From positions 1 to 26,772 of IMG/VR virus record IMGVR_UViG_2778260994_000003: DNA of 26,772 nt, one strand, 5' to 3'. The translations under genes were made by a program, and so were the position numbers. Under the pieces are notes generated by a model. It was not told the origin of the DNA, ran no database searches, and worked only from the letters and a program-made list of their open reading frames with translations. Shown one piece after another: positions 22,656 through 25,136 of this stretch. Numbering within the stretch: position 1 is the first letter of the stretch; the number at the start of each line of letters is the position of its first letter. The DNA comes from a virus. Its lineage: Duplodnaviria; Heunggongvirae; Uroviricota; Caudoviricetes.

Positions 22656-25136
22656 ATGAGTAAAGTCTTTATTTGCGCCGCCATTCCGGACGAACAGGCA
22701 ATAAAGGAAGAAGGTGCAGTTGCTGTAGCCACTGCCATTGAAGCCGGTGACGAACGCCGCGCCCGTGCCAAATTTACCTGGCAATTCCTGGAGCAATATC
22801 CGGCTGCTCAGGACTGCGCTTATAAATTTCTTGTCTGCGAGGATAAACCCGGCATGCCCCGCCCTGCTATCGACTCCTGGGATACCGAATATATGCAGGA
22901 AAACCGCTGGAATGAGGAAGGCGCTTCCTTTGTCCCGGTCGAAGCAGAATCCGATCCGATGAACGTCAATTTTGACAAGCTGTCCCTTGAAGTACAGAAC
23001 GCGGTCCTGGTTAAGTTCGGTACATGTGAAAACATCACCGTTGATATGGTGATTAGTGCACAGGAATTGTTGCAGGAGGACATGGCAACATTCGACGGGC
23101 ATATCGTTGAGGCATTGATGAAAATGCCTGAAGTTAACGTCATGTATTCAGAACTAAAGCTGTTCGCCATCGGGTGGGTTAAACATAAATGTAAGCCGGG
23201 CGCAAAATGGCCTGAGATCCAGACAGAATTACGCACCTGGAAAAAACGTCGCGAAGCCGAACGCAAAGAAACCGGGAAATACACGTCTGTTGTTGATCTC
23301 GCCTACGCCAGAGTCAACCGGCAGAACACTGAAAACTCAACAGGAAAAATCCACCCTGTCACTGCCGCCATTCGTCGCGAATACAAGCAGACATGGAAAA
23401 CACTGGATGATGAACTGGCCTACGCTCTCTGGCCTGGTGATGTGGATGCCGGAAACATTGACGGCAGCATCCATCGCTGGGCAAAAAATGAAGTTATCGA
23501 CAACGACCGCGAAGACTGGAAGCGTATCTCGGCATCAATGCGCAAACAGCCTGATGCCCTTCGCTACGACCGCCAGACTATTTTTGGCCTTGTCCGTGAA
23601 CGTCCGATCGACATTCACAAAGACCCTGTGGCACTGAACAAATACATTACTGAATACCTGACTACAAAGGGCGTGTTTGAAGATGAAGGAACAAATCAGA
23701 GCGCAACTGATACTCTCTCGTCGCCAGTACCAGAAACTGATGCAGTGGAAACGGCAATTCCGGACAACGAAAAAACCGAATGCAAAGTGGAAGTCGAACC
23801 ATCTGTAGAGCGTGAGGGGCCGTTCTACTTCCTCTTCACCGACAAGGATGGCGAAAAATACGGTCGCGCAAACAAACTTTCTGGTCTGGATAAGGCACTG
23901 GCTGCCGGGGCTACTGAAATCACGAAAGAAGAATATTTCGCCCGCAAAAACGGTACATACTCAGGTTCACAACAAAATACTGGTGCATCTGACACGACCG
24001 CACAACCAGGGCCGGTAAAAGTTACCGCTGACGAAGTAAACAAAATTATGCAGGCAGCCAATATCAGCCAGCCTGACGCCGATAAGTTGCTTGCTGCCTC
24101 TCGCGGAGAATTTGTTGCAGGGATTAGCGACCCGAATGATCCGAAATGGGTTAAGGGGATCCAGACCCGCGATTCTGTAAACCAGAACCAGCATGAATCG
24201 GAACGGAACTACCAAAAAGCGGAACAAAACAGCCCAAATGCGTTACAAAACGAGCCAGAAACGAAACAGCCTGAACCAGTGGCGCAACAGGAACCGGAAA
24301 AGATCTGCACCGCCTGCGGTCAGAGCGGTGGCGGCAACTGCCCTGAATGTGGTGCGGTGATGGGCGACGCAACATACCAGGAAACATTCGATGACAAGAA
24401 CCAGGTTGAAGTTCAGGAAGACGATTCGGAGAAAATGGAAGGCGCTGAACATCCACACAAGGAGAATGCTGGCAGCGCTCAGGACCACGCCAGCGATAGT
24501 GAAACTGGCGAGACGGCAGATTCCTTAATTTCGGTGAACGGTCATCACGTTATCACATCCACCAGCAGAGTGTGGTACCACCTGATGATCGACCTTGAAA
24601 CAATGGGAACCAACACCAATGCGCCCATCGTGGTTATTGGTGCGGTTTTCTTCGACCCACAAACAGGGGAAATCGGGCCAGTATTTTATATCGTTATCAG
24701 TCTGACTGACGCAATGAATACAGGGGCTGTTCCTGACGGTGGAACCATCGAATGGTGGCTGAAGCAGTCCAGTGAAGCCAGAGCTGCCATTTTAACAGAC
24801 CAGGTAAAACTGAAGGATGCCCTTTCGCAGTTTCGGGAGTTCATCAACGAATACTCAGATGAAAAATTCGTTCAGGTATGGGGTAATGGTGCGACTTTCG
24901 ATAACGCAATTTTGCGCACCTCATACGAACGTCTGGACATCCCCTGCCCGTGGCGCTACCACAACGATCGCGATGTACGCACAATCGTTGAGCTGGGAAA
25001 AACAATCGACTTTGATGCCAGAACCGTTATTCCATTCGAAGGCGTGCGCCACAATGCACTGGATGACGCCCGTCACCAGGCAAAATACGTTACAGCTACG
25101 ATACAAAAACTGATCCCGAGTCAGGCTGATTTTTAA
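22656..25136 (+). CDS. RecE-family large exonuclease with zinc-ribbon and C-terminal DEDD-type 3'-5' exonuclease domain
   Basis: 826 aa. Middle region LLAASRGEFVAGISDPNDPKWVKGIQTRD...CTACGQSGGGNCPECGAVMGDATYQETF resembles the Rac RecE linker as remembered. The C-terminus carries DnaQ-like motifs (MIDLETMG, WGNGATFDNAIL, HNALDDA). GAGG RBS. Confidence 0.6.
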   Translation: MSKVFICAAIPDEQAIKEEGAVAVATAIEAGDERRARAKFTWQFLEQYPAAQDCAYKFLVCEDKPGMPRPAIDSWDTEYMQENRWNEEGASFVPVEAESDPMNVNFDKLSLEVQNAVLVKFGTCENITVDMVISAQELLQEDMATFDGHIVEALMKMPEVNVMYSELKLFAIGWVKHKCKPGAKWPEIQTELRTWKKRREAERKETGKYTSVVDLAYARVNRQNTENSTGKIHPVTAAIRREYKQTWKTLDDELAYALWPGDVDAGNIDGSIHRWAKNEVIDNDREDWKRISASMRKQPDALRYDRQTIFGLVRERPIDIHKDPVALNKYITEYLTTKGVFEDEGTNQSATDTLSSPVPETDAVETAIPDNEKTECKVEVEPSVEREGPFYFLFTDKDGEKYGRANKLSGLDKALAAGATEITKEEYFARKNGTYSGSQQNTGASDTTAQPGPVKVTADEVNKIMQAANISQPDADKLLAASRGEFVAGISDPNDPKWVKGIQTRDSVNQNQHESERNYQKAEQNSPNALQNEPETKQPEPVAQQEPEKICTACGQSGGGNCPECGAVMGDATYQETFDDKNQVEVQEDDSEKMEGAEHPHKENAGSAQDHASDSETGETADSLISVNGHHVITSTSRVWYHLMIDLETMGTNTNAPIVVIGAVFFDPQTGEIGPVFYIVISLTDAMNTGAVPDGGTIEWWLKQSSEARAAILTDQVKLKDALSQFREFINEYSDEKFVQVWGNGATFDNAILRTSYERLDIPCPWRYHNDRDVRTIVELGKTIDFDARTVIPFEGVRHNALDDARHQAKYVTATIQKLIPSQADF

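Follow-up and report, generated by a model that had tools for sequence, protein, structure and literature searches.

A DexA-type DEDDh exonuclease on a partly RecE-like scaffold in the early operon of a defective Qin-type prophage

RecE of the Rac prophage, a 5'-3' nuclease of the PD-(D/E)XK type whose gene is followed by recT, and T4 DexA, a DNA exonuclease that takes part in intron homing and in the scavenging of host DNA (PMC12153337), are the main points of reference for the gene described here. EcD, an Escherichia coli homolog of DexA, is reported to be a defense nuclease specific for DNA containing 5-hydroxymethylcytosine (5hmC) and to protect against T4 (PMC12153337, NAR 2025), and according to a 2026 preprint, DEDDh exonucleases that are encoded by prophages and carry auxiliary domains (the ISG20-like “TONDO”), selected among proteins of <500 amino acids (aa), block MS2 and Qbeta (PMC13344964). 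For whole recombination (Rec) modules of lambdoid phages, a recent survey (PMC12315714, Genome Res 2025) defines a “Tritos” class that has a nuclease and many Chi sites and is without an annealase (single-strand annealing protein, SAP), a single-stranded DNA-binding protein (SSB), or an anti-RecBCD function. The survey also reports DnaQ-like nucleases in such modules, describes “RecE-2” proteins of unknown role without a nuclease domain, and scores phage ZF40 as lacking an annealase. The window analyzed here is the entire 26,772-nucleotide (nt) stretch of record IMGVR_UViG_2778260994_000003 (positions 1-26,772; Caudoviricetes), and our subject is the following gene, taken from the list of open reading frames (ORFs):

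22656..25136, plus strand: exonuclease gene, an uninterrupted ORF of 826 aa

The identity of its product is secure: a modular early-operon protein in which an intact DexA-type DEDDh exonuclease is carried by a partly RecE-like scaffold. A preliminary description of this DNA had read it as a RecE-like exonuclease with a DEDD 3'-5' domain and no RecT partner; the observation is confirmed and its structural conclusion was right, but the feature had been catalogued before and occurs in a very large number of genomes.

The ORF starts with ATG, with GAGG 9 nt upstream, and the motifs quoted from it earlier (MIDLET, VWGNGATFDNAIL, and RHNALDDA) are present in the translation. The protein is identical to RefSeq WP_000048591.1, for which the names “exonuclease,” “3'-5' exonuclease,” and “3'-5' exoribonuclease domain-containing protein” are in use. 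The family phrog_2082 (“exonuclease,” 823 positions) covers it end to end (aa 1-826), and close homologs carry three precomputed Pfam families (PF27430, PF16473, and PF27432). At the nucleotide level, the gene matches 10 complete E. coli genomes at 100%, where it is annotated as “exonuclease,” and 3504 of 5426 complete E. coli genomes contain a match covering at least 80% of it; genomes with any match have a median of 2 matching places and up to 10. The gene is the unbroken counterpart of the K-12 Qin pseudogene ydfE, which corresponds to the first 256 aa of the window protein (88% identity) and is interrupted by IS2E. The gene is not new, being very common in E. coli lambda-like prophages. 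A literature search for the function of ydfE, for PF16473, and for Rv2179c together with prophage found no functional study of ydfE or of the family.

The DEDDh exonuclease domain and its scaffold

24579..25097, plus strand: DEDDh 3'-5' exonuclease domain of the DexA/Rv2179c type (aa 642-814), identified by Pfam, DexA alignment, and AlphaFold/Foldseek

The DnaQ-like motifs noticed in the C-terminal part of the protein are borne out by its match to PF16473 (Rv2179c-like 3'-5' exoribonuclease domain; aa 642-814; E = 7.4e-68; 228.2 bits against a cut-off of 27), which spans profile positions 2-175 of 177. Residues D646, E648, D749, H799, and D804 align with the catalytic D7, E9, D119, H186, and D191 of DexA in an alignment that includes standalone relatives, and these five residues, which belong to the three Exo motifs, are invariant in two alignments. 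The T4 DexA entries 8kel and 8ken are the only solved structures reached by sequence search. In an AlphaFold model of aa 430-826, the block-mean predicted local distance difference test (pLDDT) is 83-97 across most of the domain, and Foldseek against the Protein Data Bank (PDB) places DexA 8kel first (E = 1.7e-11; template modeling (TM) score 0.69-0.75). The next matches are RNase T, REXO2/Orn, and 3'hExo, which are DEDDh enzymes as well. Domain annotation by profile search and structure prediction of the C-terminal part, both proposed in the preliminary description, thus agree on a DEDDh fold whose nearest neighbor is T4 DexA. From this fold, a polarity opposite to that of canonical RecE would be expected.

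Before M644, where an internal start could give a separately expressed nuclease domain, no Shine-Dalgarno-like sequence was found. Standalone proteins of ~185 aa that consist of the DEDDh domain are widespread too, as seen in a search of 1.8 billion representative proteins that also served for the survey of modularity given below. A separate relative, P0122 (527 aa), joins scaffold aa ~1-367 straight to the middle of the DEDDh domain. It has no first Exo motif and probably arose by deletion, with loss of activity.

The region upstream of the nuclease domain is made up of the following parts:

22656..22943, plus strand: scaffold module 1 (aa 1-96), small alpha/beta domain
22959..23273, plus strand: scaffold module 2 (aa 102-206), all-alpha, with an invariant KWPEI motif (W185, P186)
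23388..23675, plus strand: scaffold module 3 (aa 245-340), all-alpha, weakly RecE-like
23808..23966, plus strand: scaffold module 4 (aa 385-437), beta-hairpin and helix domain with a GPFYF...GRANK motif
23970..24518, plus strand: RecE-homologous segment (aa 439-621), 60% identical to aa 431-611 of Rac-SA53 RecE
24306..24350, plus strand: Cys4 motif C551-x2-C554-x7-C562-x2-C565, a putative zinc ribbon common with RecE

An AlphaFold (AF2) model of aa 1-450 contains four folded modules, the fourth of which spans aa 388-432 in the model, with disordered linkers between them, and ratios of nonsynonymous to synonymous substitution rates (dN/dS) were computed against four phage copies of the gene. 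Module 2 (block pLDDT 77-93; dN/dS 0.11) carries the KWPEI motif seen in the alignments, module 3 (76-90; 0-0.10) lies within the NCBIfam RecE match, and module 4 (82-88 over aa 391-430; 0.03-0.19) is conserved in all scaffold relatives. A structural search with the scaffold returned no informative relative. Residues 262-360 match aa 295-393 of Rac-SA53 RecE at 26% identity (BLASTP, E = 2e-4), and the RecE-homologous segment, with a dN/dS of 0.2-0.7, stops exactly at the start of RecE's nuclease domain. This segment begins with a short folded part (aa ~452-506, containing GISDPNDPKWV; block pLDDT 57-81) and continues as an acidic, mostly disordered linker, with pLDDT mostly <55 and aa 507-636 mostly disordered. 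Its Cys4 motif matches Pfam DZR at E = 0.072, which is below the cut-off, has a block pLDDT of ~68, and is missing in the relatives P0123 and P0125.

A canonical RecE was considered and rejected. Against the NCBIfam RecE model NF007259 the protein scores 275.6 bits, far below the equivalog cut-off of 1269, and only aa 244-625 align, to profile positions 267-602 of 877. Neither of the two defining domains is present: PF06630 (N-terminal Exonuc_VIII) gives no match at E ≤ 1, against 2.4e-67 for Rac-SA53 RecE, and the window protein lacks the PF12684/PDDEXK match that Rac-SA53 RecE has. A phmmer search of the six-frame window with the RecE nuclease domain returned nothing at E ≤ 10. The RecE-likeness proposed in the preliminary description is therefore valid for aa ~245-625 and overstated for the whole protein, since the first ~240 aa are a different module. 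Its RecE-like linker stands, aa 439-621 being 60% identical with the Cys4 motif included, whereas the zinc ribbon has to be called putative in view of the DZR score and pLDDT just given. In the same way, the description as a domain-swapped relative of RecE fits the C-terminus, where DEDDh takes the place of PD-(D/E)XK, but not the N-terminus, which differs too.

The folded modules are under purifying selection, with dN/dS mostly 0.03-0.17 (0 where there are no replacements), against 0.4-0.7 in the linkers. An exception is the value of 0.63 for the DEDDh domain, obtained against the near-identical copy of phage Evi, where dS is only 0.05. Among segments of this one gene dS ranges from 0.016 to 1.06, a jump that points to recombination inside the gene.

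Gene neighborhood, missing annealase, and Chi sites

21317..22090, plus strand: cI/LexA-family repressor gene, head of the leftward region
25206..25457, plus strand: excisionase gene (PF06806), directly downstream of the exonuclease gene
25477..26772, plus strand: integrase gene

As the preliminary description had noted, the next gene is excisionase-like, and the integrase gene follows; in close relatives, int abuts rspB, the K-12 Qin attachment site, and the prophage ends there. The exonuclease gene occupies the same place, with xis and int directly after it, in phages Evi, mEp460_ev081, Tritos, PhiR42_1, and vB_EcoM-606R7, and the order cI - ydfABC - dicF - dicB - ydfD - exo - xis - int is conserved in those five phages and in K-12 Qin. 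In K-12, ydfE is reported to be co-transcribed with dicB and ydfD, and the genes downstream of DicA to be repressed by DicA (PMC11430063). Between window positions 21900 and 25600, 0 sigma-70 consensus promoters were found against 4.1 expected.

The claim that no RecT-like annealase is present extends from the window to every related phage examined. Pfam and PHROG scans, which covered the large ORFs of the window and those ORFs of Tritos, Evi, and mEp460 that have no known function, revealed no annealase. When all six frames of the window and of the complete Tritos sequence were searched with RecT, the RecE nuclease domain, and a Rad52-type profile, nothing was found at E ≤ 10; nor is any Tritos gene annotated as an annealase, and none of the ORFs of unknown function in this phage matches an annealase PHROG. 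Within 7 kb of nine scaffold loci in species-representative genomes, no RecT, RecE-type nuclease, or Rad52-type gene was found besides the fusions described below. The survey of related phages and prophages suggested earlier thus found none, and a hidden annealase nearby, sought with Pfam, PHROG, and six-frame searches, is ruled out at the available sensitivity. Among the ORFs scanned, which were those of ~90 aa or more, there was likewise no match to a Gam or Abc2-type RecBCD inhibitor.

24559..24566, minus strand: Chi site (GCTGGTGG) inside the exonuclease gene

Chi sites are abundant, with 11 in the window against 0.8 expected, a number reached in 0 of 100 shuffles. They lie at 5713, 6062, 7451, 8265, 8576, 11324, 11376, 11909, 20800, 20845, and 24559, and 7 of the 11 are on the minus strand. 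Similarly, Tritos has 11 (9 on one strand) against 1.4 expected, one of them within its copy of the gene (27079-27086). The abundance in the window agrees with the association between many Chi sites and the lack of a RecBCD inhibitor in lambdoid phages that is published in the survey (PMC12315714).

Scaffold relatives, proposed role, and rival explanations

The modularity survey shows that the parts of this protein occur in other combinations. The N-terminal PF06630 domain of RecE is fused to the window-type DEDDh domain in P0124, P0125, P0133, and P0134, while the window-type scaffold is fused to a RecE-type PDDEXK nuclease in P0140 and to a third C-terminal domain in P0136, P0147, P0148, P0176, P0234, and gp07 of Pectobacterium phage ZF40. 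P0140, ZF40 gp07, and the Erwinia and Pantoea proteins have an N-terminal scaffold that is 24-45% identical to aa ~3-450 of the window protein, and their genes occupy the same position, between cI and int; the difference lies in the C-terminus, which is DEDDh in the window protein, RecE-type PDDEXK in P0140, and the third domain in the other scaffold relatives.

On profile evidence, this third domain is a Rad52-family annealase. PHROG labels it “exonuclease”; some of its homologs have precomputed PF04098 matches, and one is named a RAD52-pathway protein by JGI. A profile of 54 sequences reached only human RAD52 in the PDB (E = 0.007), over a core that includes the K..TD..K.AL motif, and PF04098 is matched by 27 of the 54 members (best E = 1.2e-7). 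For instance, ZF40 gp07 (“putative exonuclease,” L012:3708-5873) and prophage proteins of Erwinia, Pantoea, and Pseudescherichia are scaffold-Rad52 fusions located in this same slot. Like ZF40 gp07, the fusions in the genome loci L044-L047 (~6701-8977) are annotated as “putative exonuclease” (phrog_2489 and phrog_7838). In these four loci, the fusion gene is overlapped at its end by an ORF of 167-197 aa, which in L045 and L047 has the sequence MSNRTIDLALEISKLE..., and ZF40 gp06 overlaps gp07 in the same manner. No related loci were found for P0147 in viral contigs or for P0140 in genomes. The association of one scaffold with three enzyme types, together with the Rad52-type fusions, is a side result that may be new.

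Because other proteins join the scaffold to a RecE nuclease or a Rad52-type annealase, it is tied to recombination modules, and these fusion partners lean against the suggestion in the preliminary description that the protein acts in anti-defense rather than recombination.

The best-supported reading, which we put forward tentatively, is that of a DNA exonuclease that is tethered and trims 3' ends, made by Chi-rich phages for which RecBCD and RecA are supplied by the host. Its starting points are the anatomy, the intact catalytic site, the purifying selection, the gene position, the absent partner, and the Chi enrichment described above. In structural terms, the protein is an assembly of four small folded N-terminal modules on acidic disordered linkers, the segment shared with RecE, and the C-terminal DexA-type DEDDh enzyme. 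Its gene is the last one before xis-int in a repressor-controlled leftward (dicB/pL-type) operon, a position that implies production on induction or infection and not in the quiescent lysogen, and it appears to be the sole recombination-module gene of its phage lineage. With no annealase, no recognizable RecBCD inhibitor, and many Chi sites, this lineage would depend on RecBCD and RecA of the host. We infer that the substrate is DNA and that the polarity is 3'-5': the scaffold would anchor the enzyme to DNA ends or to a partner from the host, the DEDDh domain would remove nucleotides from 3' ends, and phage DNA ends would be trimmed or blunted during recombination-dependent replication and repair in cooperation with RecBCD and RecA. 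T4 DexA, taken to trim 3' ends in double-strand-break repair, would offer the analogy.

Unlikely, in our view, although it is the main rival, is a prophage defense or exclusion nuclease that acts against incoming phages, on modified DNA like EcD or on the 3' ends of RNA phages like TONDO. The window domain has 34% identity (E = 6e-33) with EcD, for which protection against T4 has been reported (PMC12153337), enzymes of the TONDO type are reported to block MS2 and Qbeta (PMC13344964), the Pfam family is named after an exoribonuclease, and the gene remains intact in many defective prophages. The residues linked to 5hmC recognition are, however, not conserved: DexA W152 and D169 correspond to H769 and T783 in an alignment that has 26% identity and is moderately uncertain, while the tetramer residue D90 is kept as D721, and membership in the EcD/HREX group was rejected on these residues. 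A known defense system was rejected as well, PADLOC yielding only a generic DEDDh match (E = 3.5e-5). Moreover, an early-left operon beside xis-int, with no promoter of its own detected, is an unusual site for prophage defense genes, and elsewhere the same scaffold bears recombination enzymes. More improbable is that the protein forms half of a two-component recombinase, its RecE-like segment docking an annealase (RecT, Red-beta, Erf, or Rad52-type) that a second prophage in the cell provides in trans. The number of matching places in gene-bearing E. coli genomes (median 2, up to 10) does imply several lambdoid prophages per cell, and the 60%-identical RecE segment is directly upstream of the nuclease domain in both proteins. 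According to a review, linear-linear recombination works better with full-length RecE than with the bare nuclease, but the RecT-dependent activity of RecE needs only its C-terminal nuclease domain, which is absent from the window protein (PMC11611040). Sequenced phages such as Tritos, furthermore, have the gene without an annealase of their own, and known pairs resect 5'-3', which gives the annealase a 3' tail, whereas a 3'-5' enzyme leaves the opposite strand.

Two further explanations separate the gene from recombination or from any present activity. That the enzyme degrades host or competitor DNA for nucleotides, or acts on a host defense system by destroying its nucleic-acid signal or effector, is very doubtful, even though T4 DexA contributes to host DNA scavenging (PMC12153337). 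Expression timing in the early operon would fit this role; yet the neighborhood gives no pointer to a defense target, and the scaffold is associated with recombination enzymes. Temperate lambdoid phages are not known to degrade the host chromosome, which counts against scavenging. There is also a slim chance that the window copy is an inactive leftover of a decaying prophage, one without head and tail genes that carries cargo and insertions, lacks 1276 bp of the operon directly before the gene, and has broken counterparts in K-12 and Shigella flexneri. Its reading frame, however, is intact and identical in 10 complete genomes, and the folded modules are strongly constrained by purifying selection relative to the phage copies.

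As a prophage gene, the exonuclease gene is ordinary, being among the commonest in E. coli, and its current annotation as “3'-5' exonuclease” is correct; the partner-less type of module is already present in the published survey (PMC12315714). What is odd is a 3'-5' exonuclease as the sole occupant of a recombination slot. The added value of our analysis is modest: the scaffold is seen to combine with three types of enzyme, and Rad52-type annealase fusions are recognized, by which database labels are corrected because these fusions are filed as “exonuclease.” The N-terminal region of RecE has been without a known role for decades, and a scaffold shared by three DNA-end enzymes offers a concrete handle on it. 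Going further, the RecE-like scaffold could be a delivery module that brings interchangeable DNA-end enzymes (PD-(D/E)XK, DEDDh, and Rad52-type) to one common partner from host or phage, with the DEDDh version steering the host RecBCD-Chi-RecA pathway in a phage that has no recombinase of its own; we regard this as a speculative idea that is rather unlikely to hold. If true, it would account for what the N-terminal part of RecE does, and the published “RecE-2” proteins, of which ZF40 gp07 may be one, would be scaffold-annealase fusions.

Prophage context and comparison with known systems

The window corresponds to a defective Qin-type prophage with a host major facilitator superfamily (MFS) transporter gene on its left flank. 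From the left, it carries tail-fiber remnants, Bor, lysis genes, a methylase, Q, RusA, DUF968, hokD, and cargo genes, followed by a replication gene, YdaT, cro, the cI-like repressor, and then the exonuclease, xis, and int. Features outside the exonuclease region include the following:

7104-8150, minus strand: DNA methylase (N6_N4_Mtase)
8751-10034, plus strand: 427-aa ORF of unknown function near the methylase, matching phrog_5990 at full length
13149-13985, minus strand: Mrr_cat-like restriction-endonuclease ORF in a low-GC insert
14280-15233, minus strand: 317-aa ORF without known function in the same insert
22352..22576, plus strand: chimeric 74-aa ORF whose C-terminus is that of ydfD (DUF1482), left by a 1276-bp deletion

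The deletion, seen by comparison with the closest complete genomes, lies at 22417|22418, has no visible microhomology at its junction, and took the 3' part of ydfA, ydfB, ydfC, dicF, dicB, and the 5' part of ydfD. DicB and DicF inhibit division, and selection may have favored their loss in this defective prophage. The low-GC insert (~13100-15300; GC 0.33 at 14001-15000) occupies the place where the closest genome has a ParA gene and two hypothetical genes; PADLOC gave just a weak PDC-S02 match there, and the insert may be a variable defense islet. The cargo genes at 15403-18747 (minus strand) encode a DUF2254 protein and a BCCT-family transporter.

Like the window protein, Rac RecE is a large multi-module protein from the early left operon of a lambdoid prophage, with a C-terminal nuclease after an acidic linker. 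In contrast, the window nuclease is DEDDh (3'-5' type) where that of RecE is PD-(D/E)XK (5'-3'), PF06630 is replaced by unrelated modules, and the gene is followed directly by xis-int, whereas recT follows RecE in Rac. T4 DexA (exodeoxyribonuclease A; 8kel/8ken) is likewise phage-encoded and has the PF16473-type DEDDh fold and the five catalytic residues of the window domain, to which it is ~25% identical; it differs in being a standalone protein of 227 aa from a lytic phage, with extra loops and without a scaffold.

EcD (“HREX”) belongs to the same Pfam family and is found on phage-like contigs. Rebuilt from the primers of its paper on viral contigs, it is a standalone 189-aa ORF (MIDTETLGNG...TPFLNI) with A78 at the position of DexA D90 and with the Trp kept, where the window domain has Asp (D721) and a His, respectively. 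The rebuilt ORF occurs on the IMG/VR viral contigs L015, L020, L030, L031, L033, and L036, which suggests that EcD is itself phage-borne.

The closest parallel at the level of the module is phage Tritos, which carries a homologous gene (85.6% nucleotide identity) in the same position. Tritos is a complete phage genome, whereas the window element is a defective Qin-type prophage; its module nevertheless shares the traits of the Tritos class, namely an early-left nuclease, no annealase, no SSB, and abundant Chi sites.

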